Shown here: positions 1,929-57,565 of the stretch, piece by piece
How positions within the stretch are numbered: the first letter of the stretch is position 1
Layout: the number at the start of each line of letters is the position of its first letter
Origin: an uncultured delta proteobacterium
Lineage (GTDB): Bacteria > Desulfobacterota > Binatia > Binatales > Binataceae
Direction: 5' to 3'
Assembly (NCBI GenBank): GCA_963771325.1
Contig: CAVYTJ010000002.1
Span: 673,074-737,073 of the forward strand
Length of the DNA: 64,000 bases
The notes under the pieces: generated by a model
Databases searched by the model: none
Seen by the model: only the letters and a program-made list of their open reading frames with translations
Told to the model about the DNA's origin: nothing
Made by a program: the position numbers and the translations under genes

Positions 1929-2966
1929 ATGGAATCAAATATGTCGCTTGAAATGCAATCCTCGACCGGCGCTGACACCGCCGGCGCGCGGCTATATCGC
2001 AAGCTCGCCGCTCTTGGGCAGGACGGCTACGACCTGGCGGCCTGCGAGCGCTACGCCGCCCAGATCGACGAAATCAACCGGCTCAAGGCCGAGCGCGGCG
2101 CGGTCGTGCTCGCGCACAACTACCAGCGCCCCGAAATATTCGAGGTCGCCGACTTTATCGGCGACTCGCTGGAACTCGCGTACAAGGCGCGCGAGGTCCG
2201 CGACGCCGGAATCATCGTGTTCTGCGGTGTCCACTTCATGGCCGAGACCGCCAAGGTCTTCAACCCCGAGCGGATGGTGCTGCTGCCAGACCTGCGGGCC
2301 GGATGCTCGCTGGCGGATAGCGTCACCGCCGAAGCGCTGGCCGAGCGCAAGGCCGAGTTGCGCGAGATTTATCCCGACCTCAAAGTCGTCTCCTACGTCA
2401 ACTGCACCGCCGACGTTAAGGCCGAGTCCGACGCCTGCTGCACGTCGGCCAACGCGCTCAAGGTGGTCGAGGCGATCGACTCCCGCCATGTGCTGTTCGT
2501 TCCCGATCAGAATCTCGCCAACTACGTGCAGAGCCAGACCAGCAAGAAGATCATCTCGTGGGACGGCAACTGCTACGTGCATCACCAGATAACCGCCGAG
2601 GAGGTCGACCGGGTCAAGCGCGCGATCCCCGGCATCAAGGTGCTGGCCCATCCCGAGTGCCGCACCGACGTGCTGCGGCTGGCCGACGCGGTGCTCTCGA
2701 CCAGCGCGATGGTGCGTTATGCCGAGAGCAGCGACGCGGACAAGTTCCTGATCGTGACCGAGTGCGGGCTCTCGGACCGGTTGCTGATGGAGATTCCGAA
2801 CAAGCACTTCTACAAGGCGTGCAAGCTCTGCCGCTACATGAAGATGATCACGCTGGGCGGCACGCTCGATTCGCTGCGCCACCTGCGCTTCGAGATCGAA
2901 CTGCCCGAAGACGTGCGCGAAGGGGCGCGCCGCGCGCTGGAGCGGATGCTCGAATTGGGCGCGTAG
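1929..2966 (+). CDS. nadA: quinolinate synthase
   Basis: VLAHNYQRPEIFEVADFIGDSLELA, FCGVHFMAETAKV and conserved Cys residues are NadA hallmarks. ATG at 1929. Confidence 0.9.
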   Translation: MESNMSLEMQSSTGADTAGARLYRKLAALGQDGYDLAACERYAAQIDEINRLKAERGAVVLAHNYQRPEIFEVADFIGDSLELAYKAREVRDAGIIVFCGVHFMAETAKVFNPERMVLLPDLRAGCSLADSVTAEALAERKAELREIYPDLKVVSYVNCTADVKAESDACCTSANALKVVEAIDSRHVLFVPDQNLANYVQSQTSKKIISWDGNCYVHHQITAEEVDRVKRAIPGIKVLAHPECRTDVLRLADAVLSTSAMVRYAESSDADKFLIVTECGLSDRLLMEIPNKHFYKACKLCRYMKMITLGGTLDSLRHLRFEIELPEDVREGARRALERMLELGA

Positions 2967-2977
2967 GAGACGCGGCT

Positions 2978-3127
2978 GTTGTCATCCTGAACGAAGGTTG
3001 CCGAAGTGAAGGATCAACGCGAAGCGATTTTTATGTTTATCGCCACCCTGAGACATCGGCAGATCGATAACGGCGCGAAGAGAGATCCATCGCTTCGCGG
3101 AGATCCTTCGCTGACGCTCAGGATGAC
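2978..3127. repeat. copy A of an inverted-repeat extragenic element (arm Y 2978-3030, 54-nt spacer, arm X 3085-3127); BIME/MITE-like
   Basis: Arm X (atccatcgcttcgcggagatccttcgctgacgctcaggatgac) is 43/43 identical to 32776-32818. Arm Y (tgttgtcatcctgaacgaaggttgccgaagtgaaggatcaacgcgaagcgatt) is near-identical to 32830-32886. X is approximately the reverse complement of Y. Confidence 0.75.
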
Positions 3128-3137
3128 AAAAGGGAGC

Positions 3138-6100
3138 CTAATCGCTTAACTCCTCGAGCAGCGCCTTGGCGTCTTTGAGGTCGGCGGTGTCGAAACCCTC
3201 GGAAAACCAGCCGTAGATTTCCGCGAGCATCGCGCGCGCTTCGTCGCGGCGGCCCAGTCGCGCGAGCAGACGCGCAAGGCTCATCACGGCGCGCAGCTCC
3301 CACGACCTGGCTTCCTGCTCGCGGGCGATCGCGATCGCCTGCTCGAAGCAGGTTTGCGCCTGCGCCTCAAATGGGGCTCCGCGGGTCAGCAGCGCCTCGC
3401 CTCTCAGCCGGCACAACTCGGCCGCGCTCATGCGCGCTCCGGTTTGCTCGATGACGTTGAGCGCCTGCTCCGCCGCGCTCCGCGCTTGGTCCGCCAGGCC
3501 CGCTTTGAGATAAGACGAAGCCAGGCCCACGACGACGGCGGCGGCGCCCAGCGCGGATCCCGTCGCGCGGTACGACTCGATGCCGGCCAGCGTTTCCGCG
3601 ATGCCCTCGTCGGTTCGTCCGAGCGCGGCTTGAGCGATACCGCGGTAAGTCGATCCGAGCGCGCTCCAATAGCGGAATCCGTGCTCCATCCCCACCCTGC
3701 GGGCCTCGTCCGCCAGTTGATGCGCGGCTTCGGGATCGCGGCGGCAAAGTTTGAGCATCGCTCCGTAACTGAGGGCAAAAGCCAGGCTCATCGGATGGCC
3801 GAGGTCTCGCGCGCGCCCCAACGCTTCGCCGCTCATCTCGAGCGCGGCGGCCGGATAGCCGAGCAGCCACAACGCCACCGACAAAAAAGAAAGCGAAGCG
3901 ACCCGCGGGTCCTGGGGCATCCCTTTCAACGGCGAAGGATCGTGTATGGCCGCCGCCTGTTCCAGTCTTGCGCGAGCGGCGCGGAATTTTCCGCTGAAGA
4001 GCGACACGGCGCCGCTCGCGAAATTCGCATTCGCTATCATGCCCGAATCACGCGCACGCTCGGCAATTTCGATTAGCTCCATGCTGGTCTGGTCCGCGCG
4101 TCCGAGATCGCGCCGTACCTGATGGAAGGCCCAGGCGAACATCAATGCAGGGAAGTGGAGCACGGGGTCGCCGAGTGCGCCGCTCAGTTCCAGCGCGCGC
4201 CGCGCGGATTCTTCGACTTCGGGCGCCGCATAGCCCTTGTTCGCAACCAGCGATCCGACCAGGGCAAGCCGCAGCTCGACTTCCCGCCGCATCCGCTCCT
4301 GGCCCTCGGGCTCGCGCGCGAGCATTTCGAGCGCGGAATTAAACAGGCTTGCCGCCTCTTCATGAGCGGAGCGCCGTTCCGCCTGCTCGCCGGCGAGCCG
4401 CAGATAGTGGATCGCCTTGCCGGCGTTTCCACTGCGGCTGTAATGGCGAGCGAGATCCGGCAAATGATCGTCGAGCTGATCGGCAAACAGCGCCTCGATC
4501 GCCTGTGCCGTGCGCTCGTGGAGCGGCTTGCGGCGCTCGTTCAGCACCGAGCCATACGCCACCTCGTGCGTGAGCGCGTGCTTGAAGCTGTATTCCACGT
4601 CAGGCAGCGCCGGCTGCTCGTAGATGAACTCGCCGAGCTGCAAATCGCCGAGCATCCGCTCCAGTTCGTCATCCGGCTTGCCGGTGACCCGTCTGACCAG
4701 ACCCAACGGAAACTCCTTGCCCATCACCGCCAGCGTCTGCAGCAGCTCTTTCTCGCCGGCGGGCAGACGGTCGATACGCGAGGCGAGAATCGCCTGGACC
4801 GTCGGAGGGATCCTCAGTTCGTCGAGCGCCTTGGTCAGCTTGAGCGTCCCGTTACGCACCAGGGCTCCCTCGTCGAACAGCACCTGCACGGTCTCTTCCA
4901 TGTAGAACGGGTTACCCTCGGTCTTGTCGATAATCAGCCCGCGAAGCGGTTGCAGCGCGACGTCGTCGCCGAGCAAGGCCGTCAGCATTTCCCCGGCGCT
5001 CTCGCGCCCCAGCGGATCCAACCGAAGCTGCGCGTAATGGCTTTTGTTGCTCCAGTTGTGCCGGTACTGCGGCCGATAATTCACCAGCAACAGCACGCGC
5101 GCGTTGGCAATCGCATCGACCAGCAGGTCGAGCAGCGCCTGGGTCTCGTTGTCGATCCAGTGCAAGTCCTCGAACACGACGATCAGCGGCCGGTTTAGGC
5201 TCTCGCGCAGCAAAATCCGCTTGATCGCCTCCAGCGTCCGCCGCTGGCGCACTTGTCCATCCATCTGCGCCAGCGCGCCGGCCGTTTCTTCCACGCCCAG
5301 CAGCGCAAACAGGTACGGCAGGGAGTCTTCCAGCGCGCGGTCGAGCATCATCACCTTGCCGGCCATCTTCTCGCGCCGTTTGCGCGCATCGTCGTTGGGC
5401 TCAATCTCGAAGTAGTTGTTCAGCAACTCGATAACCGGAAGGTAGGCCGAGGCCTTGCCGTGCGAGACCGAGAATGTTTCCAGCGTCAGGCATCCGCTCT
5501 GCGAGGTCATCTTGAATTCGTAGAGGAGCCGCGACTTGCCCAGCCCGGCCTCGCCCATCGCCGCGACGACCTGCCCGTGGCCCTTCTTCACCAGTTCGAG
5601 CGCGTGGCGCATCGCGGCCATCTCGCGCTCGCGGCCGACGAATTTCGAAAGGCCGCGGCCGGCCGAGCGCTGCAGCCGCGTGCGCAGCGATCCAAGTCCG
5701 GTCACTTCGTAAACGTTGACCGGCTCGTTGACGCCCTTGATGCGTGACGGTCCGAGGGCGCGGAAGAAAAAGTAGCCGTCGCACAGCCGAAACGTCGCTT
5801 CGCTCGCGACCACGGTGCCGGGCTCGGCCAGGGTTTGCATCCGCGAGGCCAGGTTGGCCGTATGGCCGATAGGTGTGTACTCGACGTGCTGCTCGCCGGT
5901 CTGAATGGGGCGCACTACCACTTCGCCGGTGTTGAGTCCGATGCGAATCTGGATTGGCGCACGCCCCTCGGCGCGCAAATAGCCGGCGAGCTTTTTGATC
6001 TCCTGCTGCATCCGGAGCCCCGCCAGCAGTGCGCGCTGCGGATGGTCTTCGTGGGCCACGGGAGCGCCGAACAACGCGAAGATGCCGTCGCCGGTGGATT

Positions 6101-6506
6101 GCACGACGTAGCCGTCGTAGCGATGCGCAGCGTCGATCATCAGCTTCAACGCCGGATCGATCACGCGACGAGCGTCTTCGGGATCAAGGTCCTCCATGAG
6201 CTCGGTCGAGCCCTTGATATCGGCGAACAGCGCGGTGACGGTCTTGCGTTCGCCTTCGATCTCCGCAGCCGGTAAGCCTGCCGCGATCACGCTAATCGAG
6301 GCGGGGGCCTTGCCTGGGGCGGACTGAGCGGCCGGTGTAGGAGTGCCGGCGGCTCCTTGCAGGGGTGCGGCGCACTCTCCGCAAAATCGCGCCGCAGGCG
6401 AGTTGTCAAATCCGCACCGTGAGCAGCGCCGCCTGAACGGAGCAGCGCACTGCTCGCAGAACTTGAGCCCTTCCGGATTTTCCGCCCCGCAAGCTGAACA
6501 GTGCAT
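3138..6506 (-). CDS. double zinc ribbon / class III adenylate-guanylate cyclase (CHD) / STAND AAA_16 ATPase / TPR protein (paralogue 1 of 3)
   Basis: N-terminus has two CxxC...CxxC ribbons (MHCSACGAENPEGLKFCEQCAAPF..CSRCGF..CGECAAPL). CHD motifs TALFADIKGST and VVQSTGDGIFALFG. Walker A GEAGLGKSRL and Walker B VVFEDLHWID. Long TPR-like C-terminus ending YGWFSEGFDTADLKDAKALLE. Confidence 0.9.
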   Translation of the reverse strand: MHCSACGAENPEGLKFCEQCAAPFRRRCSRCGFDNSPAARFCGECAAPLQGAAGTPTPAAQSAPGKAPASISVIAAGLPAAEIEGERKTVTALFADIKGSTELMEDLDPEDARRVIDPALKLMIDAAHRYDGYVVQSTGDGIFALFGAPVAHEDHPQRALLAGLRMQQEIKKLAGYLRAEGRAPIQIRIGLNTGEVVVRPIQTGEQHVEYTPIGHTANLASRMQTLAEPGTVVASEATFRLCDGYFFFRALGPSRIKGVNEPVNVYEVTGLGSLRTRLQRSAGRGLSKFVGREREMAAMRHALELVKKGHGQVVAAMGEAGLGKSRLLYEFKMTSQSGCLTLETFSVSHGKASAYLPVIELLNNYFEIEPNDDARKRREKMAGKVMMLDRALEDSLPYLFALLGVEETAGALAQMDGQVRQRRTLEAIKRILLRESLNRPLIVVFEDLHWIDNETQALLDLLVDAIANARVLLLVNYRPQYRHNWSNKSHYAQLRLDPLGRESAGEMLTALLGDDVALQPLRGLIIDKTEGNPFYMEETVQVLFDEGALVRNGTLKLTKALDELRIPPTVQAILASRIDRLPAGEKELLQTLAVMGKEFPLGLVRRVTGKPDDELERMLGDLQLGEFIYEQPALPDVEYSFKHALTHEVAYGSVLNERRKPLHERTAQAIEALFADQLDDHLPDLARHYSRSGNAGKAIHYLRLAGEQAERRSAHEEAASLFNSALEMLAREPEGQERMRREVELRLALVGSLVANKGYAAPEVEESARRALELSGALGDPVLHFPALMFAWAFHQVRRDLGRADQTSMELIEIAERARDSGMIANANFASGAVSLFSGKFRAARARLEQAAAIHDPSPLKGMPQDPRVASLSFLSVALWLLGYPAAALEMSGEALGRARDLGHPMSLAFALSYGAMLKLCRRDPEAAHQLADEARRVGMEHGFRYWSALGSTYRGIAQAALGRTDEGIAETLAGIESYRATGSALGAAAVVVGLASSYLKAGLADQARSAAEQALNVIEQTGARMSAAELCRLRGEALLTRGAPFEAQAQTCFEQAIAIAREQEARSWELRAVMSLARLLARLGRRDEARAMLAEIYGWFSEGFDTADLKDAKALLEELSD

Positions 6507-6579
6507 ATCCTCTGGTCACCCGGCTGACTATTCCCTATCTCGCCGGATGCCGACAAGCGTCCAGCAATATCCTGGCGTC

Positions 6580-7296
6580 CTATGGCCTTACTGTCTCACC
6601 CCGGTGCTTTCGATACATCTTGTCTCGCCACGCGAATATCGGGGCGAACGCTGAATTCGAGGTCACCGACGCGGTATACATCGGACGCATCGATGCGGGA
6701 AAAACGAAGAGCTCATCAGCAGGAGGGTTCACCAGCAGAAACATGCTCGCGGTGGTGAGATCGGCCCGGGTGAAAGCATCGCCGACTAAATACTCACGTC
6801 CATCGAGAGCATGTTTGAGTACCGTCAAAATCCGCTCGACCGTGACTTTGGCATGCTCCTCGGCATACTGGGTGTGTTGGTACTTCTGCGCAAAGTATTG
6901 TCCGCCTTGTTGCAATTCCGGCGCGCTCGATCGCAGAAAATGCCCAATGATGAGCATCCGCGCCTGAGGGCCCAGGACCCCGTCCATCAGCTCCTCCCAC
7001 ATCATCACCTGCGCCCGATCTTTCTCGGACTCCGGCATGAGCCGCGGTTGCGGGTGATGCTGCTCAAGCCAATTCAGGATCGCGGTCGAGTCGGGAATCA
7101 CCGTGCCATCAACGAGCAACACCGGGACCTGGGCCTGCCCGGTCAGTTTCTTTACTGCTTCTTCGTCCACCCCGGGCTGGTAGTCCTGTTTTTCATATGG
7201 CACGCCTTTGAAGTTGAGCGCCCATCGAACGCGTTCCGCCCAGGGCGACGCATACATCTGAATCAACTTTGTAGTACTCAACTTTGTACTGCTCAT
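6580..7296 (-). CDS. glutathione S-transferase family protein
   Basis: Thioredoxin-like N-terminal domain with YASPWAERVRWAL...QVPVLLVDGTVIPDSTAILNWLEQ, followed by a helical C-terminal domain. Only 24 bp downstream of paralogue 2 on the same strand. Confidence 0.75.
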   Translation of the reverse strand: MSSTKLSTTKLIQMYASPWAERVRWALNFKGVPYEKQDYQPGVDEEAVKKLTGQAQVPVLLVDGTVIPDSTAILNWLEQHHPQPRLMPESEKDRAQVMMWEELMDGVLGPQARMLIIGHFLRSSAPELQQGGQYFAQKYQHTQYAEEHAKVTVERILTVLKHALDGREYLVGDAFTRADLTTASMFLLVNPPADELFVFPASMRPMYTASVTSNSAFAPIFAWRDKMYRKHRGETVRP

Positions 7297-7320
7297 TTTT
7301 GAATACCCCCGCTGGAACGT

Positions 7321-10300
7321 TTAGGACAATTGTTCGATAAGTACCTTCGCGTCAATCAAATCTTTCGTATCAAGACCTTCGCTGAACCATCCGTAGATCT
7401 GCGCGAGCATCTGCCGGGCTTGCTCCTTCTTGCCTTGCTGCTCCCACAACCGGCTCAAGCTCGTCACCGCTCTTAACTCGAACGACTTGGCTTCTTGTTG
7501 ACGCGCAATCTCGATGGATTTACGGAAGCATTCTTCCGCTTCCATTTGGATGGCAGGCTCCGCTTCGACGCCGGAACGCCGGAGGACGAGTTCCCCCTTC
7601 AATCGATGGAGTGCCGCCTCGTTGTAGCGCTGGCCCGTTTTTTCCACTATCGCGATCGCCTCTGCCACAGCAGCCAGTCCTTCCTCGAAGCGTCCCGCTG
7701 TTGCGTATGCCTCCGCCAGGAAACAAAGAAACCACGGTCGGAACAGGCTGGCCCCTGATGCTAACTGGGCGTCCAAACCCTCGCGGATCATCGCAATTCC
7801 TTCCTCTGTTTGTCCCTGCTGGGCAAGTGCGTATCCTCGATACATAGTTGCCTGCGCCAGAAAACTCCCAAATCCTTGCTCCCTGCAGAGCGCGATCGCC
7901 GCCTCCGCTTGTTGCTGGTACGCAGGCCATTCCTTGCGAAGTTGAAGGATTGGAAGTGTGTGCAGCACCGTAAGTGCCAGGCTATACGCGTGAGACTGGT
8001 TGTGAGCCAGGGCGAATGTCTCCCCCATCCTCTTTGAAGACTGTTCTGGATGTCCGAGAAGCTCCAGGATCCACGCTGTCCTGCCGAGGCAAAACACTCC
8101 GGGATCCAGCCCATAGACAAATGTATGAACGTGATGTTTCTGAGGGTCGTACAAGCTGATCGCCCGTTCGAAGTGCTGCAAGGCAGGGATCAGCTTCCCG
8201 AAAAGGAACAGCGAATTTCCCTGCGCCAGATGAGCTTCCACCAGAAGACCAGAGTCTTGCACGCTCTCTGCCAGGCTCACGAGCTGCTGTGCTAGCTCAA
8301 AAGCCGACTGCAACTCTCCCCGTATGAGATGAAAGGATCGCAGACCAAACAACATTGGAAAGAGCCTTGCTTCCTCGCCTGATTGTCGGCCCAACTGGAG
8401 CGCTCGCTCGTAGACTGCCCCTACCTCTGGTGCCCCGTTCCCCTTCGTCGCTATCAGAACCGGACCAAGGATCGTCTGCAGGACCAACTCCCGCTGATCA
8501 CGTTGCGGGCTATTCGGCAAGGTCTTCAACAATTCCAATGCAGTAGTGAGGTATTTGATCGCTTCCGTGTTTGCGGATCGTTCGATAGCTTGTTGCGCGG
8601 CAAGTTGCAGATATTCCAGTGCCTTCAGGCTGCTTCCGCTGCAACTGTAGTGATGAGCCAGCTCTCCGTAGTGGTCTTCTAACCGAGAATTAAAGAGAGC
8701 TTCAATCTGACCTGCCGTGCGTTCGTGCAATTCCTTGCGCCGTTCTCCGAGTAACGAACCGTATGCCACCTCTTGGGTGAGCGCATGTTTGAAGGTGTAC
8801 GCAGATTCAGGAAAGGCAGGCTGCTCATAGATGAATTCGCTAAGTTGAAGGGCCGCAAGCATGCGTTCGAGTTCCTCGTCCGGCTTTCGTGTGACACCCC
8901 TTACCAGTCCGAGCGGGAATTCTTTGCCGATCACGGCGAGCGTCTGCAAGAACCCTTTCTCGTCCGCCGGCAGACGATCGATTCGCGAGGCCAGGATTCC
9001 CTTCACCGTGGGCGGGATGTGGATCTCGGATATTGAGCGGGTGACCTTGACCGCGCCATTGCGGACTAGCGCACCCTGATCGAACAGCGCCCGTATCATC
9101 TCCTCGATAAAAAATGGATTCCCCTCGGTTTTTTCGATGATCAGCCGCTTAAGCGGCCGCAGTTCCACCGCATCGCTCATCAATGCACTCAGCAACTCCT
9201 CGGCGCTCTCGCGCCCCAGCGGATCGAGCCGCAATTGAGTGTAGTACGTCTTACTGCCCCAGCTGTGTGAGTATTCGGGACGGTAATTCACGAGCATCAG
9301 GATCTTTGCGGTGCCGATCGATTCGACGAGCAGATTCAGCAGCGCCTGCGTCTGTTCATCGATCCAGTGCAGGTCCTCGAAGATCACGACCAGCAACTGG
9401 TTGAGGCTCTCGCGCAACAAAATCCGCTTGATGGCGTCCAGCGTGCGCCGACGCCGCAGGTCCGCGGCTATTTGCCCGAGCATCCCCCCTGGCTCCTCCA
9501 CCCCGAGCAGGGCGAAGACGTAGGGCAAGGTATCTTCCAGCGTCCGGTCGAGCATCAGTACCTTGCCGCCGATCTTTTCGCGCCGCCGCCGTTCGTTGTC
9601 TTCAGGGATCAGAGCGAAGTAGTCTTTGAGCAGCTCGATAACCGGCAGATAGGCCGAGGCCTTGCCGTGCGAGACCGAAAAAGCTTCGAGCACCAGGCAA
9701 CTGTCCTGCGCCACGGCTTTGAACTCGAAAAACAGCCTCGACTTGCCCAGCCCCGCCTCGCCCATCGCCGCTACCACCTGCCCGCGCGCGCCTTTAGTTC
9801 GCTCCAGCGCGCGCTTCATTTCCTCGATCTCGCGGTCCCGGCCGACGAATCGCGACAGCCCCCGCCGCGTCGACATCTGCAGCCGCGTGCGCAGCGGACC
9901 CAGCCCTACCAGCTCATAAACATTGACCAGCTCGCTCACGCCCTTGACCCGGGTTGGCCCCAACGTCTTGAACTCGAAGTATCCTTCGACCAGTTTCTGC
10001 GTATGCTCGCTCACCGCGATCGCCCCGGTCGGCGCGAGCGCCTGCATTCGCGCGGCCAGACTGGTCGAATGCCCGATCGGAGTGTACTCGGTGCGATGCT
10101 CGCCGGTCTGAACCGAGCGCACCACCATCTCGCCGGTGTTCAGCCCCACGCGAATCTCGATCGGCGCGCGCCCCTCCTCGCGCAGCTTGCTTGCGTACCG
10201 CTTGATGTCCTCCTGCATCTTGAGCGACGCGAGCAGCGCCCGCTGCGGATGGTCTTCGTGCGCGACCGGCGCTCCGAACAGCGCGAAGATGCCATCCCCG

Positions 10301-10746
10301 GTCGATTGCGCCACATAGCCCTCGTAGCGATGCACCGCGTCCATCATCAGCTTGAGCGCGGGATCGACCAGCCGGCGCGCCTCCTCCGGGTCGAGGTCCT
10401 CGATCAACTCCATCGAACCTTTGATATCGGCGAACAGGGCGGTGACCGTCTTGCGTTCGCCGTCGATCGCCATCGACGTTTCTGGCAGCTCCGCCGTGAC
10501 GCGAATTTCGGGAGCGGGTGCTGTTACCGGCGGCGCCTTGGGTGAAACAGCTTGAGCATTGCCAGCCAGCGCGCCCCCGCATTCGCCGCAGAAGTCCTCG
10601 CCGGGATCGTTCGAAGCACTGCATTGTGGGCACCGGCGCGCAAGCGAAGAACCGCATTTCGCGCAGAATTTGCGCCCCTCCCGATTTTCTGCTCCGCACT
10701 TCGCGCAGCGCATTTTTCCATTTCCCGTCTTGTCAGCGCGGTGCAC
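7321..10746 (-). CDS. double zinc ribbon / class III cyclase / STAND ATPase / TPR protein (paralogue 2 of 3)
   Basis: Same architecture as 3138-6506: CAKCGAEN..CAKCGS, TALFADIKGSMELIEDLDPEEARRLVDPALKLMMDAVHRYEGYVAQSTGDGIFALFG, GEAGLGKSRL, FEDLHWID. C-terminus ends YGWFSEGLDTKDLIDAKVLIEQLS. Confidence 0.9.
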   Translation of the reverse strand: MHRADKTGNGKMRCAKCGAENREGRKFCAKCGSSLARRCPQCSASNDPGEDFCGECGGALAGNAQAVSPKAPPVTAPAPEIRVTAELPETSMAIDGERKTVTALFADIKGSMELIEDLDPEEARRLVDPALKLMMDAVHRYEGYVAQSTGDGIFALFGAPVAHEDHPQRALLASLKMQEDIKRYASKLREEGRAPIEIRVGLNTGEMVVRSVQTGEHRTEYTPIGHSTSLAARMQALAPTGAIAVSEHTQKLVEGYFEFKTLGPTRVKGVSELVNVYELVGLGPLRTRLQMSTRRGLSRFVGRDREIEEMKRALERTKGARGQVVAAMGEAGLGKSRLFFEFKAVAQDSCLVLEAFSVSHGKASAYLPVIELLKDYFALIPEDNERRRREKIGGKVLMLDRTLEDTLPYVFALLGVEEPGGMLGQIAADLRRRRTLDAIKRILLRESLNQLLVVIFEDLHWIDEQTQALLNLLVESIGTAKILMLVNYRPEYSHSWGSKTYYTQLRLDPLGRESAEELLSALMSDAVELRPLKRLIIEKTEGNPFFIEEMIRALFDQGALVRNGAVKVTRSISEIHIPPTVKGILASRIDRLPADEKGFLQTLAVIGKEFPLGLVRGVTRKPDEELERMLAALQLSEFIYEQPAFPESAYTFKHALTQEVAYGSLLGERRKELHERTAGQIEALFNSRLEDHYGELAHHYSCSGSSLKALEYLQLAAQQAIERSANTEAIKYLTTALELLKTLPNSPQRDQRELVLQTILGPVLIATKGNGAPEVGAVYERALQLGRQSGEEARLFPMLFGLRSFHLIRGELQSAFELAQQLVSLAESVQDSGLLVEAHLAQGNSLFLFGKLIPALQHFERAISLYDPQKHHVHTFVYGLDPGVFCLGRTAWILELLGHPEQSSKRMGETFALAHNQSHAYSLALTVLHTLPILQLRKEWPAYQQQAEAAIALCREQGFGSFLAQATMYRGYALAQQGQTEEGIAMIREGLDAQLASGASLFRPWFLCFLAEAYATAGRFEEGLAAVAEAIAIVEKTGQRYNEAALHRLKGELVLRRSGVEAEPAIQMEAEECFRKSIEIARQQEAKSFELRAVTSLSRLWEQQGKKEQARQMLAQIYGWFSEGLDTKDLIDAKVLIEQLS

Positions 10747-10886
10747 TATCTCGACAACCGCGCCGGAGAAACAAAGGTCTACTACGTGGGCACGCCAACG
10801 CCTACCCTACTCTCTCGGTGCTCGGCCGTTCGCCCTCCTGTCTCCCGTGGCGACGGCCGAGCGATCCGAAGGTCACTGTGCAGAGC

Positions 10887-10914
10887 AGAAAAACGGGGGG
10901 ACGTTTGTCCCGCG
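10887..10914 (-). terminator. candidate intrinsic terminator downstream of the cupredoxin gene
   Basis: Minus-strand RNA reads ccgcgggac-aaac-gucccccg followed by UUUUU, immediately after the stop at 10917. Confidence 0.5.
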
Positions 10915-10916
10915 GA

Positions 10917-11462
10917 TCACTTCACGTCTATTTCCATGCGCATCCAGGGATGGATGCAGCATTCGAAGAGATGCTTGCCCTTCGAAAGACCGGTGATATC
11001 AAGGTGGCTACCCTGGAGGATTCGCGTCCTGGCCACCGCGATGTTTTTAAAGCCACCGGAGCACTCGGGAATGACGCTTGTTGCGCTGCCAGGATTGAGC
11101 TGCGGGATGAATCCGTTACCGAACTCCTTTACCTCGGTAAAGGTGTGCGGCTCACCGCCTTGGTCGACTATGGAAACGATGGTCCCCCGCTTGATCGTCA
11201 ACTTGTCGGGTTCGAAGTCCCAGCCCGGATCGGGAGTTCCAGCCTCCGCCAATGCAAATAGCTCGGACAGTGTAGTAAATGCTCCGAGCGTGACGTTTTT
11301 GCAAAAGTCCGGGCCCACCGCCGCGTTGAACGTGACTGGATCACATTCGTCCAAGGCCACGATCTGGGCCAGACTAGGTGATTTATCTTGCGCACCCGCG
11401 TGCGTCGCGCCAGCGAACATCAAGCAGCCGACGAATAAACCCACTACCACGGTAATTTTCAT
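10917..11462 (-). CDS. secreted cupredoxin (amicyanin/plastocyanin-like type 1 copper protein)
   Basis: Signal peptide MKITVVVGLFVGCLMFAGATHA. Candidate T1Cu ligands: His in GGEPHTF and the C-terminal FECCIHPWM (Cys-x2-His-x2-Met, the amicyanin CTPHPFM spacing). Confidence 0.6.
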   Translation of the reverse strand: MKITVVVGLFVGCLMFAGATHAGAQDKSPSLAQIVALDECDPVTFNAAVGPDFCKNVTLGAFTTLSELFALAEAGTPDPGWDFEPDKLTIKRGTIVSIVDQGGEPHTFTEVKEFGNGFIPQLNPGSATSVIPECSGGFKNIAVARTRILQGSHLDITGLSKGKHLFECCIHPWMRMEIDVK

Positions 11463-11693
11463 CTTGATTCTTCCTCCTCGTCGATCAGATTAACGTTGGT
11501 TCCACGGCATTCCTCTGGCCAAAAAACCACGCGCAATTCGCAATTTTTAAGGCTCACCTCCTTTGTCGCGCGATTGTGAGTTTGTTGCGTTTTGTGCGAG
11601 TATCGCAGCCATCCGAGCGCGAAGTCCTGATCGAATTCGAACATTTCTCTTACAACTTGCGCCCCATCCGACCGCTCGGAGGAGCTAGCAGAG

Positions 11694-13428
11694 ATGGCGG
11701 CAGAACATGCAGTCCGCTTCGGTCCCTATCGGCTCGACGCCTCCGAGGAGCAGGTCTGGCGGGGCCAACAGCTGGTGAAGCTCACGCCCAAGAGCTTCTC
11801 CGTTCTGCGCTACCTCGCGGAACGTCCAAAGCGCCTAGTCACCAAGGAGGAACTGTTCAGGGCACTGTGGCCGAATACGGCGGTTAGCGATGCGGCATTG
11901 ACAAGATGCATTCGCGAGATTCGGGAGGCGCTCACCGACGATGCGCGCTCGCCCCATTACATCGAGACCGCGCACCGGCGTGGGTTTCGCTTCGTTGGGC
12001 CCCCGGCCGAGGTGCGCCAGCCGATCCCGCGAACGAAGACAAAGTATGCGAAGAGTGGAGGCGTTAACATCGCCTATCAGGTCGTCGGCGAGGGCCCGGT
12101 CGACCTGGTGATGGTGCCCGGGTGGACCTCGAACGTGGAGGGCTGGTGGGAGCTACCCGCCTCGGCGGCCTTCTATGAACGGCTGGCGACCTTCTGCCGC
12201 CTTATCATTTTCGACAAGCGGGGAACCGGCATGTCGGACCCCTTTCCCCTCGATCAACCGCCCACGCTCGAGCAGCGGATGGACGACGTGCGAGCGGTCA
12301 TGGACGCAGCGGGCTTCGAACGGGCGGTATTGTTCGGATATTCCGAGGGTGGCCCGATGTCCCTCCTATTTGCCGCCACCTACCCGGAGCGGACGGTCGC
12401 GCTCGTTCTGCACGGGACGTTCGCCAAGCAGGAATGGCATGACACATTTGCGGCGAGGCTCGCCGAAACGCCCGAACAACTCGCGGCGCTGGTCGAGGAG
12501 CGATGGTCCGAGGGCTGGCCCGGCCTCGATGTATGGGCGCCGACCTTCGCGGACAACGAAGAGAACCGACAGGCGTTCGCCCGCTTCATGCGGCAAGCGG
12601 CGAGCCCCGCGACCGCCGCGGCGATCCTACGGATGTCGTGGGAGATCGACGTGCGGCCCATTTTGCCCGCGATCCGCGTGCCGACCTTGATTCTCCACCG
12701 CCGCGAAGAACGAGCGTTTGGCGTGGCGCATGCGCGATATCTCGCCGATCACATTCCTGAGGCGAAGTATGTCGAGATGCCCGGCGTGGATCACCTCCTG
12801 TACGCTGGCGACCACGAGGCGATAGCGGAGACGGTCGAGGAGTTCCTGACCGGTGCCCGACATGCCCGCAAGGCCGGCCTTCTCGCCACGGTGTTGCTCA
12901 TCGACGTCGTGGATTCGGCGGGACGAGCCTCCGAGCCCGGCGACCGCGCCTGGCGAAGTCTCCTCGGGCGCTACCAGGAGTTGGTTCGAAGGGAAGTGAG
13001 CCGTTTTCGTGGACGCGAGGCGGCAGGTGATCGCTGCGCGGCGACGTTCGACGGCCCGATCCGAGCGCTTCGCTGTGCGCTGAGGCTGCGTGAGGCCCTT
13101 CGGGAGTCAAGACTTCCAAATCCGCATGAGTGTACACACCGGAGAATGCGAATTCCAAAACGATCGGCTGAGCGGCACTACGGTTCGCATCGCGGCCCAG
13201 ATTCTCGCCAAAGCCGCGCCGGGTGAGATCTGGGTATCGGGTACCACGAAGGATTTGGTACCCGGCTCGAGAATCGAGTTTGAGGATCGAGGACTACACG
13301 TCTTAGGCGATATCCCACGACAATGGCCTTTGTTCATCGTGAAATCGACGGATGACGCGGCAACCCGTCGATCACGGTCTCTTCCTCCTTCTCGCTCACA
13401 GCTCTACCGGACCGCTCGGCGCGGATGA
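11694..13428 (+). pseudogene. winged-helix (OmpR/CadC-type) + alpha/beta-hydrolase + class III cyclase-domain protein, interrupted by a +1 frameshift near 13096-13105 (possibly an assembly artefact)
   Basis: Residues 1-105 VRFGPYRLD...LTPKSFSVLRYLAERPKRLVTKEELFRALWPN...RRGFRFVG form a trans_reg_C domain. This is followed by an alpha/beta-hydrolase fold (GYSEGG nucleophile elbow). CHD start LLIDVVDSAG...GDRCAATFDG is in frame 0, and the CHD continues as IRMSVHTGECEF...GTTVRIAAQ in frame +1 (ORF 13090-13428). The shift site is at a CCC/GGG run. Confidence 0.75.
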
Positions 13429-13655
13429 GTGCTCTGATGAATGCTCTTTGGTGGCCCGATTGGGCGCCGATATCACGCTGTCCGAAATAGCGATACCGCG
13501 ACTCGTGAAATAGGCGCTTTCATCGTTTTGAGCGAAGGCCGGCATCGCGCCTATACTTGACAGTGGAAGCCATATCGACGCGGGCCGAATGTGGCCGAGG
13601 CCGCGATCAAAGACGCTCTCTGCGGAGCCAATAAACCGACCGACGGGAAGACACT

Positions 13656-15713: not shown

Positions 15714-15818
15714 CGTCGGATGCGTCCGTCGTTCACGAACCGCCGCGGCGGCCAGGGCCGCGAGGGGGCCGCCCTGCCTTTTTGAACGGCACGCAATCCG
15801 GCGGATATACTTGCGCCG

Positions 15819-32646: not shown

Positions 32647-32775
32647 TAAGACGAAACTGACGGGGCGACGGTTACATTCATTCGGATAAAATTCATAGCT
32701 TCACGATTCCGTGAGAGGCCCACGCCGCTTCTGAGCCCCTCTCCCTGTGAAGGTGTCGATAAATGGGAGAAATCA

Positions 32776-32890
32776 ATCCATCGCTTCGCGGAGATCCTTC
32801 GCTGACGCTCAGGATGACTGCAAGGAGCTTTTGTTGTCATCCTGAACGAAGGCTGCCGGAATGAAGGATCAACGCGGAGCGATTGTTTTT
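32776..32890. repeat. copy B of the inverted-repeat extragenic element (arm X 32776-32818, 11-nt loop, arm Y 32830-32886); forms a long hairpin
   Basis: See 2978-3127. Here the arms are head-to-head (..caggatgac tgcaaggagct tttgttgtcatcctg..). Confidence 0.75.
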
Positions 32891-32902
32891 GTGCTTTTAG
32901 CG

Positions 32903-34091
32903 TTACGGCTCGATGCGAGCGACGCGGCGCTTGCCGACCTCGAGAATACGATGCTGGCCGGGGACGAAATGGAAATTGATGTCGCTGACAGTCTGGCGGT
33001 CGACGCGCACCGCGCCCTGCCCCACCAGCCGGCGCGCCTCGTTGGTCGAGGCGGCGAAGCCGAGCTGCTTTAGCAACTCGCAGATCCATAGCTCCTCGGC
33101 GATGCGATACACCGGCACGTCCTGCGGCACTTCGCGGCGCTGAAACTTGCTCTCGAAATACTCCCGCGCGTCGCTCGCGGCGTCGCTATCGTAATACTCG
33201 GCGACGATCTCGGTCGCGAGCCGCTTCTTGGATTCCATCGGATGCGATTTGCCGGAGCGGATCGCGGCGAGATCGGCGGGCGCGACGTCGGTCAGGAGCT
33301 CGAAATAACGCGGCATCATCCGATCCGGAATCGACATCAGCTTGCCGAACATGTCACGCGGCGCGTCGGTCAGCCCGACCGCGTTGCCGTAGGACTTCGA
33401 CATCTTGCGCACGCCGTCGAGTCCCTCCAGCAGCGGCATGGTCATGACGACCTGCGGCGGCTGGTTAAATGCGCGCTGCAGCTCGCGCGCGACCAGCATG
33501 TTGAATTTCTGATCGGTGCCGCCGAGTTCGACGTCGGCGCGCAGCGCGACCGAATCATAGCCCTGGACCAGCGGGATAGAGCAGCTCGTGCAGGAACAGC
33601 GGCTGCTGCTCGGCGAGGCGCTTCTCAAAGTCGTCGCGCTCGAGCATCCGCGCCACGCTCAGCTTGGCGGCGATCTCGATCAGGCCGCGAACGTCGAGCT
33701 TGTCCATCCATTCGCTGTTGAAGCGGACTTCGGTCAGCGCGGGATCGAGGATTTTCGAGACCTGGCGCTGGTAGGTTTCGGCGTTGGCGACGATCTGCTC
33801 GCGCGTGAGCGGCTTGCGCGTCTCGGAGCGCCCGGTCGGATCGCCGATCATCGCGGTGAAGTCGCCGACCAGGAAGATCACGGTATGGCCGCGGCGCTGG
33901 AAGTCGCGGAGCTTCTTGAGCGCTACGGAATGGCCCAGGTGCAAATCGGGCGCGGTCGGATCCATCCCGAGCTTGACCCGTAGCGGGCGCCCTTCGCGAA
34001 GCTTGGCCGCCAGCTCATCGCCCGAGATGACTTCGGAGGCGTTGCGCCCCAGCTCCTCGGCCTGCTCTTTCGCGTCGCTCTCTTCCAACAC
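32903..34091 (-). pseudogene. tyrS: tyrosyl-tRNA synthetase interrupted by a single-base frameshift at a GGG/CCC run near 33573-33575 (probable assembly indel)
   Basis: The N-terminal ORF (33555-34091) has HIGH motif [10 protein letters not shown] and ends ...[11 protein letters not shown]. The second ORF (32903-33628) continues ...[31 protein letters not shown] and an S4 domain. Removing one C from tatcccgctgg restores [13 protein letters not shown]. Confidence 0.85.
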
Positions 34092-34098
34092 CTTGCGC

Positions 34099-35412
34099 TC
34101 AGTGCATCAATTGCGTCAGGCCGGTGGGATTCTGGAACTTCGAGATGTTGTCATACTGCGGCGAGTAGCGGTCGGCCCACAAATCCTCGCCATTGGCGTC
34201 GGCGGTGAAGATGTGAGTGGCGTGCTGCTCCTGGAGGTTCCAGTACTGCTCGATGATTCCGCCGCCGAAGTACTGCGGCCCCCACTCCGGATGGAGCCGG
34301 TCCTCGCGCGTGCGCAGCCCGATATTCACCACCTTCCACAGTGCCATGCTCGAGTCGTACAGGTCCTCGTGCACGTTGGCGAAATAGGCCTGGGCGGTGT
34401 ACATGATGCGCTTGCCGTAGCAGTAGCCCGAGCGCATCGACTCGATCCGGCGCACGTCGGTCACCCACACCGGCACCACTTCCCATTTGCCCCACGACGG
34501 CTTCGCCCAGCCAAGCGGCAGATCGTAGTTGTCGGGAAACTTGCCCATCGCGGTGGTCATGTCGACCAGCGCGAGAATATTCTGTTCACGCAGGAACTGG
34601 CCCTCGAACACTGAAGCGCCGCCGTTCCATCCCACTCGCTGATCGTCGTGCGTTGCGTCGCTGTCGAACAGCGGCGCGCATCGCGCCGAGGTCGAAAGCC
34701 GCATCGCCTGGCGCAGCGCCGGGATGAAAACGTAGTCGTCGGGCAGCCGGGTCACGTCCTGCCAGTACAGTGTCAGATCGGCCGAGTACTTCGCTTCCTC
34801 GGGCACCTCGACCATCAGCCATTCGCCGTACCACGCTCCGGTCGAGCCGGGCTCGGTGTGCGAGATGCCGGGGAACCAGTTGTAGGCGAGCTGGCGATAA
34901 TTGTAATCGACGCGAGTGCAGGCCTTGCTGCCGAACTTGTCCATCGTGCAAAACGACGACGGGGTCCCCGAATCGGGCATGCCGACGTAGAGATGGCCGC
35001 CGGGACGAAAGGTGACGTCGGCCGCGATCTCGGTCCCCTTGTCGGGGCCCGACGGATGCGGAAACGGAACGCCGGAGACATAGTTTTCCAGCTTGTAGGC
35101 GCCGTTGGGCAACTTGAGAAAGCGGGTCTGCGCCGAGTACTTCTCCACCGCGTCCCAAAACGGCTTGGGCAGCGGATGGATCGCCGTCAGCCCCACGTCC
35201 ATTTCGACGTCAGGCGGCATCTTCCAATCGACGCTGCCGTCGAATAGCGCGATCATCCCGTCGGGCATGAAGGCCTTGTACTGCTGCCAGTTCTTCATGG
35301 TGATTTTGGTGCCGGGCGGGATGGTGTTCTCCACCGCCCCGGCCATCGCCACACTGAGAAAGCAGAGTGCGAGGCCGATGATTCCAGGCAACAGCTTCCG
35401 AATGCCGTTCAT
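34099..35412 (-). CDS. secreted hypothetical protein (signal peptide; DUF1329-like size and composition)
   Basis: Own ATG at 35412 with a GGAGGG RBS 8 nt upstream. [26 protein letters not shown]... signal peptide. The ORF track fuses it with ctaB only because no stop intervenes in that frame. Confidence 0.6.
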
Positions 35413-35465
35413 CTCGAGGTCCCTCCCTGTTCCAAATCGAGGAAACTCACGCTCCCGGTGTGCGA

Positions 35466-36378
35466 TTAAACACGGTCGAGCACGATTACCAGGAATACGA
35501 TCGGCAAATACAAGAGCGAAGCGAACATCACGCGGCGCGCCGCCGCGGCGGCATTCGGGTTGCGCGCGAGCCGCAGTCCCGAAGGTCAGCATCATCGCGC
35601 CCAGCGCGAGCGCGACCGCCATCGAGATCCACCCGGCGAAGCCCAGCAGCGTGGGCAGCGCGCCCGCCGCGATGAGCGCGATGCAATCGAGCAGGATCAG
35701 CTTGTCCACTGGATTAAGGCGCGGATTACCGCGTCCGCCCGCAAGCGGCAGCATGCTGATTCCGGCGCGCGCGTAGTCGCTCTGGTAAAGCCGCGCAATC
35801 GAGAGCGAATGGGGAAGCTGCCACAGGCACATGATGAGGAACAGGATGAAAGGTTCGACGCCGAGTCTTCCGCTGGCCGCGGCCCATCCGGCAACCGGCG
35901 GCAGCGCTCCGGGCACCGCGCCGACGGCATGGCAAAGCCACGAGACCCGCTTGAGCGGCGTATACGCGAACAGGTAGAGCAGCGCGATTGCGGCGGTCAC
36001 CGCGGCGGCCAGAAAATTCGCCGCCACCCACAGCCAGGCGCATCCGCCGACCGTCGTGACGAGGCCGAAGACCAGCGCCTCGGGCGGGCTCAGGCGTCCC
36101 TCGGGCAGCGGGCGATGCTGCGTTCGGATCATCAGGGCGTCGATGCGGCGCTCGAAATACTGGTTGAGCGCGAGCGTGCCGCCGGCGGCGAGCGCGGTGC
36201 CGAACAGCGTATTCAGCGCAAGCCACAGGTCGAAGCGCTCGGCGCTGCCGAGATAGAAGCCGACCAGCGTGGTCAGCAGAACCATCGCGAGCACGCGCGG
36301 TTTGGTCAGCTCGAGATAGGCCGCGGCGCGCTTGCGCGCGCCGCTCGCCGATGCGAGCGCAACGGCTTCGGCGCTCAT
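35466..36378 (-). pseudogene. ctaB: protoheme IX farnesyltransferase (heme O synthase) with a C-terminal frameshift near 35550-35590 (GC-rich tract; probable assembly indel)
   Basis: UbiA-family motifs YLELTKPRV, NQYFERRIDALMIRTQHRPLP. The conserved C-terminal helix ...RRVMFASLLYLPIVFLVIVLDRV* with TAA stop at 35466 is in the +1 frame relative to the upstream body. Confidence 0.8.
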
Positions 36379-57449: not shown

Positions 57450-57565
57450 GCCAAAGGCGCGGCCAAGTGCGCCGGCGCCAACAAATAAAAATATCATCGG
57501 CTACGAGGCCGCGATACGCGGTCAGAAATTCCCTTCCCCAGAACTGCCGGGGAAGGAGACGGCAT

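Follow-up and report, generated by a model that had tools for sequence, protein, structure and literature searches.

What kind of sequence occupies two intergenic sites of one genome, 30 kb apart, as the same pair of inverted arms in opposite order? The question is raised by contig CAVYTJ010000002.1 of an uncultured delta proteobacterium (GenBank assembly GCA_963771325.1), of which the 64,000 nucleotides from position 673,074 to 737,073 are here called the window. A sequence-only reading of the window had described two permuted copies of an extragenic inverted-repeat element, designated here copy A (from position 2978) and copy B (from position 32776), and had compared them with bacterial interspersed mosaic elements (BIMEs), in which repetitive extragenic palindromes (REPs) alternate in orientation, and with miniature inverted-repeat transposable elements (MITEs). 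The two loci are copies of a dispersed, non-coding, palindromic mosaic family that probably behaves as non-autonomous mobile DNA, of the type of MITEs or of REP doublets forming hairpins (REPINs). The family is a new one of a known kind of element, with no match in Rfam or in the literature.

A dispersed repeat family of Binataceae

A species-representative genome collection was searched with a family pattern, GTCATCCTGARCG-N3-20-GAAGGATCNNCGCGRAGCGAT, that covers both arm types, and at least 107 matching loci were found in 28 assemblies. Only two copies would have meant a local duplication or recombination relic of this genome region, as the distance of 30 kb and the identical 43-nucleotide arm might suggest; with so many loci, and with 15 metagenome contigs that also contain family matches, this explanation is refuted for practical purposes, and the earlier proposal of a repeat family of the BIME or MITE kind is supported. 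Nearly all of the assemblies are labelled Candidatus Binataceae or belong to the same series of metagenome-assembled genomes (MAGs) under the name uncultured delta proteobacterium. The Binataceae, members of the candidate phylum Binatota, are uncultured soil bacteria known solely from metagenome assemblies. Over kilobases, three of the genomes found (L056, L069 and L010) share 86-94% identity with the window, which therefore comes from a related Binataceae genome. The sole match labelled with a genus outside the Binataceae is on a short contig (L041, JBARKP010000047.1, 2.9 kb) of a Methyloceanibacter sp. MAG, which may be mis-binned.

Match lengths are bimodal, defining a short unit (s, corresponding to arm X, about 39-43 nucleotides) and a long unit (L, corresponding to arm Y, about 49 nucleotides). 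Profile searches identified 233 units in 130 clusters within 0.87 Mb of genome loci, and the metagenome contigs contain 14 complete head-to-head copies, all of ordinary size. No match to the repeat was found in a plasmid collection by blastn. Searches of Rfam 15 at gathering and E-value thresholds with the window, locus L061 and 20 viral loci returned only the generic noise of long hairpins (microRNA precursors), and a full-text literature search with the unit sequence and with conceptual peptides (HPERSEGS, VILSEAKDL and others) returned unrelated primer matches or nothing.

Anatomy of the two copies in the window

Arm X matches exactly, with 0 mismatches over 43 nucleotides, at 3085-3127 and 32776-32818, at just these two places in the window and in none of 100 shuffled sequences. 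Arm Y is identical at 49 of 53 positions (92%) between 2977-3029 and 32832-32884, and is an imperfect reverse complement of X, with segments of 18-26 nucleotides that are 81-89% complementary and about 10 extra bases in Y. At 32776 the order is X-loop-Y and at 2978 it is Y-spacer-X, the two copies being circular permutations of each other. The sequence-only reading was accurate in these respects, the spacer that it had put at 54 nucleotides being 55 (3030-3084). Its head-to-head order at 32776 also stands, and its 11-nucleotide loop proved approximate: the units end 17 nucleotides apart, and extra pairing leaves an effective loop of 5-7 nucleotides. The true extents exceed those first described, copy B beginning near 32750 with the outer arm AAGGTGTCGATAAATG and ending near 32912, and copy A, judged by an empty site in a relative, running from about 2978 to 3139. 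Their parts are as follows.

2978..3139: copy A, a heads-out (tail-to-tail) doublet absent at the L010 site (alignment of window 2930-3215 with L010 3527-3650; fold)
2981..3029, + strand: GTCATCCTGAACGAAGGTTGCCGAAGTGAAGGATCAACGCGAAGCGATT, the long unit (L) in copy A (L-unit profile, nhmmer score 66.2)
3030..3084: spacer of copy A, 55 nucleotides, containing degenerate right and left outer arms of the head-to-head class, abutted (comparison with the head-to-head consensus)
3036-3050: spacer arm TTTATCGCCACCCTG (same comparison)
3058-3073: spacer arm GGCAGATCGATAACGG (same comparison)
3085..3127, - strand: short unit (s) of copy A, equal to arm X, the - strand reading GTCATCCTGAGCGTCAGCGAAGGATCTCCGCGAAGCGATGGAT (exact 43-nucleotide repeat; nhmmer score 56.0)
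3128..3139: right flank of copy A, AAAAGGGAGCCT, equal to the 5' half of the head-to-head loop consensus (sequence comparison)
32736..32749: CCCCTCTCCC followed by TGTG, left half of the target hairpin of copy B, which is of the CCCTCTCCC..GGGAGAGGG family (this type of flank recurs beside many copies)
32750..32775, + strand: left outer arm of copy B, AAGGTGTCGATAAATGGGAGAAATCA, containing the outer terminal inverted repeat (consensus GAGGGTGTCGATAAATG; head-to-head alignment)
32776..32818, - strand: short unit (s) of copy B, identical to 3085-3127 (exact repeat; nhmmer)
32819..32835: head-to-head linker of copy B, TGCAAGGAGCTTTTGTT (family consensus AGAAAGGGAGCCTTTTTGTT; alignment)
32836..32884, + strand: long unit (L) of copy B, 92% identical to that of copy A (nhmmer score 60.9)
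32885..32912: right outer arm of copy B, degenerate, GTTTTTGTGCTTTTAGCGTTACGGCTCG (consensus TTTGTGTTTATCGACATCCTC; head-to-head alignment)

The spacer of copy A thus holds abutted outer arms and its flanks match both halves of the head-to-head linker, which makes copy A a circular permutation of the copy B type. No other member of the family was found in the window. Both loci fold far better than shuffled sequences: the predicted energy is -71.8 kcal/mol for copy A (z of -5.2 on the + strand and -6.3 on the - strand) and -61.2 kcal/mol for copy B (z of -5.5 and -6.4).

Both copies lie at the 3' ends of genes, as had been noted. Copy A sits between two convergent genes, nadA (stop codon at 2964-2966, + strand) and a zinc-ribbon/cyclase/AAA/TPR gene (stop codon at 3138-3140, - strand), and its right flank (3128..3139) supplies two bases of the latter stop codon. 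The units of copy B begin 18 nucleotides past the stop codon of tyrS (32903-32905, - strand), which the degenerate right outer arm overlaps; there, the target hairpin lacks its right half.

A covarying hairpin unit with a GCGNAGC tip

The unit consists of a GTC head, a 5-bp stem (ATCCT/AGGAT), two G.A mismatches, a GC/GC stem and a GNA loop. Its tip, GCGNAGC, is free at N and takes the form GCGTCAGC in the s unit; the tail of the Binataceae unit, CGCGAAGCG, holds a second mini-hairpin motif. The oligonucleotide d(GCGNAGC)/d(GCGNNAGC), studied by Hirao and co-workers, forms an extraordinarily stable DNA mini-hairpin, the stability of which is missed by standard thermodynamic models and is reported to be markedly greater as DNA than as RNA; in phages such mini-hairpins act as primase and promoter signals, and phage origins, ssi signals and N4 promoters are known to contain them (reviewed in PMC13037366). 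The tip of every unit of the present family is of this form, with the difference that here it caps a dispersed repeat family, a use not described in the literature searched. Folding of single units with standard DNA parameters gave nothing beyond shuffles (z of about 0), because these parameters miss the stability of GCGNAGC.

Pairing in the unit is evident from its variation. The centre GAGCGNAGCGA has five perfectly complementary flanking bases at 115 of its 167 occurrences, and GTC precedes 114 of these 115 paired units; a wider pattern yielded 263 fully paired units and merely 13 with one mismatch. Besides ATCCT/AGGAT, six compensated stems are recurrent (ATTCT/AGAAT, ATTCC/GGAAT, ATTTC/GAAAT, ATGCT/AGCAT, GTCCT/AGGAC and ATCCC/GGGAT), and a seventh (GCCGC/GCGGC) has a single occurrence that is possibly due to chance. 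Covariation was tested on 38 distinct 25-mers with the structure ...(((((..((...))..)))))., using 500 shuffles and controls with slid partners. Both sides have changed in 5 of 7 pairs, including the inner pair (G-C to A-T); there are 22 cells with two-sided change, compared to 7.9 +/- 2.3 in shuffles, none of the 500 reaching 22, and the covariation score is 0.300, compared to 0.181 for shuffles and at most 0.086 for slid partners. Like a REP, then, the unit is an imperfect palindrome that forms a stem-loop (a stem of 5+2 bp with tandem G.A and a GNA loop); unlike a REP, it has the head (T)GTC and not the conserved GTAG. In the long hairpin between units, none of 35 pairs had undergone compensatory change, because the units are nearly invariant.

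Architecture of the elements

The 130 clusters include 36 singlets, and the others are mostly inverted doublets, with a few arrays, in three main arrangements.

L>s< (heads out): 39 clusters, with a gap of 26 nucleotides in most
L<s> (heads facing): 25 clusters, with a gap of about 15-16 nucleotides
s>s<: 15 clusters, with a gap of 26 nucleotides in most

Hairpin-forming inverted doublets are therefore commoner than singlets, as in REPINs. The alternating orientations and typed linkers (a conserved head-to-head linker and a 26-nucleotide tail-to-tail gap) are those of BIMEs, and the comparison with BIMEs drawn in the sequence-only reading is apt, there being two types of unit in head-to-head and tail-to-tail arrangements. 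Inverted pairs of short and long units form foldback elements of 110-185 nucleotides. Copy B is a member of the head-to-head class. Elements of this class are about 160 nucleotides long, follow the consensus GAGGGTGTCGATAAATGCGGGGAAAAAG - s - AGAAAGGGAGCCTTTTTGTT - L - TTTGTGTTTATCGACATCCTC and are bounded by outer inverted ends, GAGGNTGTCGATAAA...TTTATCGACNNCCTC. In the tail-to-tail classes, the same outer inverted ends of 12-15 nucleotides surround L-26 nt-s or s-26 nt-s, giving 174-185 nucleotides. The outer-end motif lies within 80 nucleotides of units at 44 of its 55 occurrences, and GAGGCTGTCGAT...ATCGACAGCCTC is conserved at both ends as the terminal inverted repeat of a MITE would be. 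In two stretches of L004 (4810-5033 and 5337-5602), units form direct tandem arrays with a period of about 55-110 nucleotides, comprising three and four copies (with a weaker fifth in the second array) in opposite orientation, 304 nucleotides apart.

At 160-185 nucleotides the elements are of MITE size (below about 300 nucleotides) and are non-coding: indels between aligned copies shift the frame, leaving no common reading frame. A small peptide starting at the ATG in GATAAATG was rejected as a candidate product, the frame differing between copies. A Tn3-like end, considered on the basis of the shared CTGACGCTCAG, was dropped, since that sequence is 50-60 nucleotides away from the tip of the element.

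Empty sites, direct repeats and targets

The elements are variably present in related genomes. L010 retains nadA and a 3' remnant of the cyclase gene and lacks copy A, its sequence reading GCGGCT-ACTGACCTGTCCTG-CTCGAGCAGCG. Two sites in the window show the reverse situation.

15715-15777: empty site, with 63 unrelated bases in the window where L010 has a head-to-head element (L010 7498-7731; alignment)
57530..57559: empty site, an intact hairpin TCCCTTCCCC-AGAACTGCC-GGGGAAGGAGA, where L056 and L069 carry a head-to-head element (alignment)

Direct repeats of at least 4 nucleotides (4-6 nucleotides; for example TTGCAG, CTGAAA, GATCCT, TGACCA and CCAAGG) abut the ends of 21 of 29 anchored elements, compared to 1.26 on average and never more than 5 when the flanks were permuted 2000 times. 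They are clear for the tail-to-tail subfamilies. Together with the insertion polymorphisms, these direct repeats support the suggestion that this is a small mobile element.

The flanks of an element are typically the two halves of a CCCTCTCCC-loop-GGGAGAGGG hairpin, the loop of which has been duplicated: an intact site reads CCCTTCCCGCACGGGAAGGG, and a filled site CCCTTCCCGCACG-element-GCACGGGAAGGG. Intact hairpins of the form CCCTCTCCC-N3-14-GGGAGAGGG number 27 in the sample, compared to 1.4 in shuffles. They constitute a second, G+C-rich repeat family (for example window 57530-57559, L050:806, L082:6400 and L045:1225), often nested in a further CCCTCACCC..GGGTGAGGG palindrome.

Like REPs, the elements lie outside genes and occur in many copies: of the 130 clusters, only 9 overlap called open reading frames (ORFs), which make up 80% of the DNA. 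The 82 classifiable intergenic sites are distributed over convergent, co-directional and divergent gene pairs as 27/49/6, compared to 90/276/92 for all intergenic gaps (chi-square about 14, p about 0.001 by the authors' arithmetic), which is a bias towards the 3' ends of genes.

The search for a mobilizing enzyme

The sequence-only reading had envisaged a cognate transposase of the IS200/RAYT type, RAYT being the REP-associated tyrosine transposase. No Y1 (HUH) transposase flanked by units was found by motif scan in the 0.87 Mb of genome loci, nor in the viral or metagenome loci. The sole match to the Y1 motif is in L036 (Pfam Y1_Tnp, 2e-08), and it was rejected as the partner transposase, being cognate to a different, GTAG-headed REP. 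This RAYT-like gene (2102-2632) is embedded, at 1827-2745, among four copies of a classical GTAG-headed REP (GTAGGGCGGGCGTCCCTGCCCGCC and its complement), with one L unit 97 nucleotides upstream; the MAG concerned, which was deposited as 'uncultured proteobacterium' and is also the source of L044, thus has a separate REP/RAYT system alongside the family.

A parent element was sought as a pair of outer ends 0.5-4 kb apart. The genes between distant units are all ordinary metabolic or regulatory genes, and the sole long-range pair is in L061, where a gene of the IS110 family (Pfam DEDD_Tnp_IS110, 2.4e-20) lies between s and L. L061 was rejected as a parent element, since the junctions show insertion of the IS110-family insertion sequence (IS) into the s unit of a head-to-head element. 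The IS is partly decayed (2377-3505, - strand) within an element at 2310-3598 that is bounded by a direct repeat, TTGGACA. The insertion point is the CT in the unit core GTCAT(C/T)-CT-GA(G/A)CG. The non-coding left end of the IS (3300-3510) folds to a stem. In the internal loop of this stem, GUUGUCAUUC and GGCGCUCAG correspond to the left flank of the target and to the reverse complement of the core together with the right flank. In this one case, the internal loop resembles the target-binding loop of a bridge RNA of IS110-family elements (PMC11208160). IS110-type insertion sequences, ISPpu9/10 and ISPa11 among them, are known to target REPs (Tobes and Pareja 2006, PMC1525189). The position of the L061 element at the CT of the unit core is similar, and the comparison, which concerns a single case, makes the Binataceae repeat a target rather than a product of such elements.

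Proposed mechanism

A non-autonomous element of this anatomy might move as follows. The two inverted units would pair into a long foldback, and a transposase supplied in trans would recognize the outer ends, GAGGNTGTCGATAAA...TTTATCGACNNCCTC, and insert the element by a short staggered cut that duplicates 4-7 bp. The preferred target would be the loop of other G+C-rich hairpins just downstream of genes, where the insertion may affect neighbouring transcripts. Copy A was gained, or precisely lost in the relative, as one unit, which suggests either a second mode of mobilization based on the unit heads or descent from a tandem or circular form. The candidate origins are the junction of a tandem pair, the reintegration of a circular form and independent mobilization, and both modes may coexist, with copies such as B delimited by outer ends and doublets such as A delimited by heads.

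Alternative explanations

Several results count against the interpretation as mobile elements with outer ends. An autonomous parent with the same ends was not found in the 0.87 Mb of genome loci or in 15 metagenome loci. The direct repeats of the head-to-head class, including 15 metagenome copies, are weaker, at 5 of 20 compared to a permuted mean of 1.06, the clear cases being CTAG, ACCAG, ATCTT and TCGTC, together with TTGGACA in L061. Target-site duplication, found in the family, is seen at neither copy of the window: copy B has a left outer end only, with no recognizable right end and no right-hand duplication, and copy A is not delimited by outer ends and shows no flanking duplication. 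The gene calls behind the context statistics were crude, being based on G+C content at third codon positions (GC3).

The main rival is the REPIN/RAYT mechanism, by which REP-like units, replicative as inverted doublets, are moved as single-stranded DNA (ssDNA) at the replication fork by a single-copy REP-associated tyrosine (HUH) transposase, without duplication of the target. This account is a serious one, if unlikely. It would explain why each unit forms a hairpin, with GTC conserved as its 5' head, a covarying stem and a cap that is stable as ssDNA (PMC13037366), and why copy A is delimited by unit heads with no duplication. As in REPINs (Bertels and Rainey 2011, PMC3116915; PMC3337134), the doublets are inverted, form hairpins in two configurations, outnumber singlets and vary in presence between relatives, the foldback of REPINs being 70-120 nucleotides. 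Enterobacterial REPs and BIMEs share with the family imperfect-palindrome units of two types in extragenic positions, alternating orientation with head-head and tail-tail linkers, clustering at gene 3' ends and between convergent genes, and a role as landing sites of insertion sequences, the unit being targeted by an IS110-family element as REPs are (PMC1525189). However, neither the genome loci nor the viral and metagenome loci contain a unit-flanked RAYT gene, the sole RAYT-like gene belonging to another REP; the outer inverted ends and 4-7-bp duplications of many elements are not produced by HUH transposition; the unit, headed by GTC and capped by GCGNAGC, is unrelated in sequence to the palindromic units Y and Z of enterobacteria; and the core of the unit is shared with viral-collection contigs of 43-70% G+C, unlike REPs, which are lineage-specific.

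Bacterial MITEs such as the Correia/NEMIS elements of Neisseria are non-coding sequences of 100-200 nucleotides with inverted repeats and target-site duplication, which are intergenic, polymorphic between strains and able to form long hairpins. The Binataceae family resembles them in size, terminal inverted repeats, duplication, intergenic location, polymorphism and hairpin formation. It differs in having no parent insertion sequence identified in the sampled loci, a variable duplication of 4-7 bp instead of a fixed dinucleotide, an interior composed of REP-like units and a preference for insertion into hairpin loops.

Accounts without transposition were also considered. A cis-acting hairpin retained by selection on the host, whether as a bidirectional terminator, a stabilizer of mRNA 3' ends or a signal in ssDNA, is improbable. 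It would suit the location at gene 3' ends and between convergent genes, the T-rich run that follows the long hairpin on both strands of the head-to-head consensus, the near-invariance of units across species with coding DNA that is 7-14% different, and the service of phage mini-hairpins as primase and promoter signals (PMC13037366), but close relatives lack the element at orthologous sites, flanking duplications and nesting in other hairpins point to insertion events, and the long hairpin shows no compensatory change. The terminator module of the sequence-only reading was not borne out either: a consensus terminator scan found 0 sites at both copies despite the T-rich run, the stem and loop being unfit for its rule. 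That the elements are small structured RNA genes or riboregulators is more doubtful still, and very improbable. Strong predicted folds on both strands and covariation in the 25-nucleotide unit are what such an RNA might show, but no Rfam family matched at gathering or E-value thresholds, none of the 35 pairs of the long hairpin is compensatory, promoter-like sites are absent from both loci by scan, the copies are permuted and occur in both orientations relative to neighbouring genes, and the GCGNAGC tip is more stable in DNA than in RNA (PMC13037366). Non-autonomous mobile DNA of the MITE or REPIN type thus remains the favoured interpretation of the two loci.

The hairpin core outside Binataceae

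The bare 25-nucleotide core of the unit, GTCATCCTGAGCGNNGCGAAGGATC, was also found in a viral contig collection, in 68 stretches (L123-L190) on contigs of 43-70% G+C. These copies are mostly heads-out inverted doublets with spacers of 16-44 nucleotides (for example L149:504-572 and L124:4896-4986), and only a few carry a tail of the Binataceae type. In one phage, two copies 2037 nucleotides apart flank ordinary head and tail genes. No recurrent protein family was found beside the core in viral contigs, and no Rfam family covers these copies. Sister families with compensated stems are present in the same contig as the core, one of them having ATGCT/AGCAT (L149:3014-3079). The s and L units are a Binataceae elaboration of a far wider hairpin unit, the host range of which is judged from G+C content only. 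A broader proposal, speculative and on balance unlikely, is that the 25-nucleotide unit could be an undescribed hairpin signal spread across distant bacterial and phage lineages and recognized in ssDNA by a widespread HUH nuclease or transposase, a primase or a hairpin-promoter polymerase, with the Binataceae elements as a lineage-specific elaboration and the unit serving also as the programmed landing site of an IS110-family recombinase with a bridge RNA.

Neighbouring genes in the window

Copy A had been taken to mark the edge of a cyclase island. This is not the case: L010, which lacks copy A, retains a 3' remnant of the cyclase gene beside nadA, and the boundary of the rearrangement is therefore inside the cyclase gene, about 100 nucleotides past the element. 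The 10.7 kb of the window at 2978-13642 correspond to 1.85 kb in L010 (3575-5426) and hold the cyclase/AAA/TPR gene (1122 aa) and an ORF of similar size (1141 aa, 7321-10746). In L010, two short remnants of the cyclase 3' end are found at about 3583-3630 and at 5240-5303, with unrelated DNA between them.

In the tyrS gene beside copy B (32903-34091, - strand), a frameshift, possibly an assembly error, leaves two overlapping ORFs (33555-34091 and 32903-33628) in different frames, and each of them corresponds to one half of tRNA-synt_1b. At 34099-36378 (- strand), an ORF of 759 aa joins a UbiA prenyltransferase domain to DUF1329/LolA-like domains, and represents either a fusion of an unusual kind or a pair of genes that a sequencing error has merged.

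Implications for Binataceae genomes

Within the literature that could be searched, this is the first description of the main small dispersed repeat of the Binataceae, and its unit shows the GCGNAGC mini-hairpin in natural use as a module repeated through genomes. The presence of the core in viral-collection contigs of very different G+C content means that the unit may point to a widespread hairpin-recognizing enzyme, and a bridge-RNA recombinase apparently programmed against the unit would be a useful natural example of target choice. Repeats of this kind break assemblies, create spurious small ORFs, remodel the ends of genes and offer hot spots for recombination and insertion; in the window, the stop codons of both the cyclase gene and tyrS lie in sequence derived from the elements.

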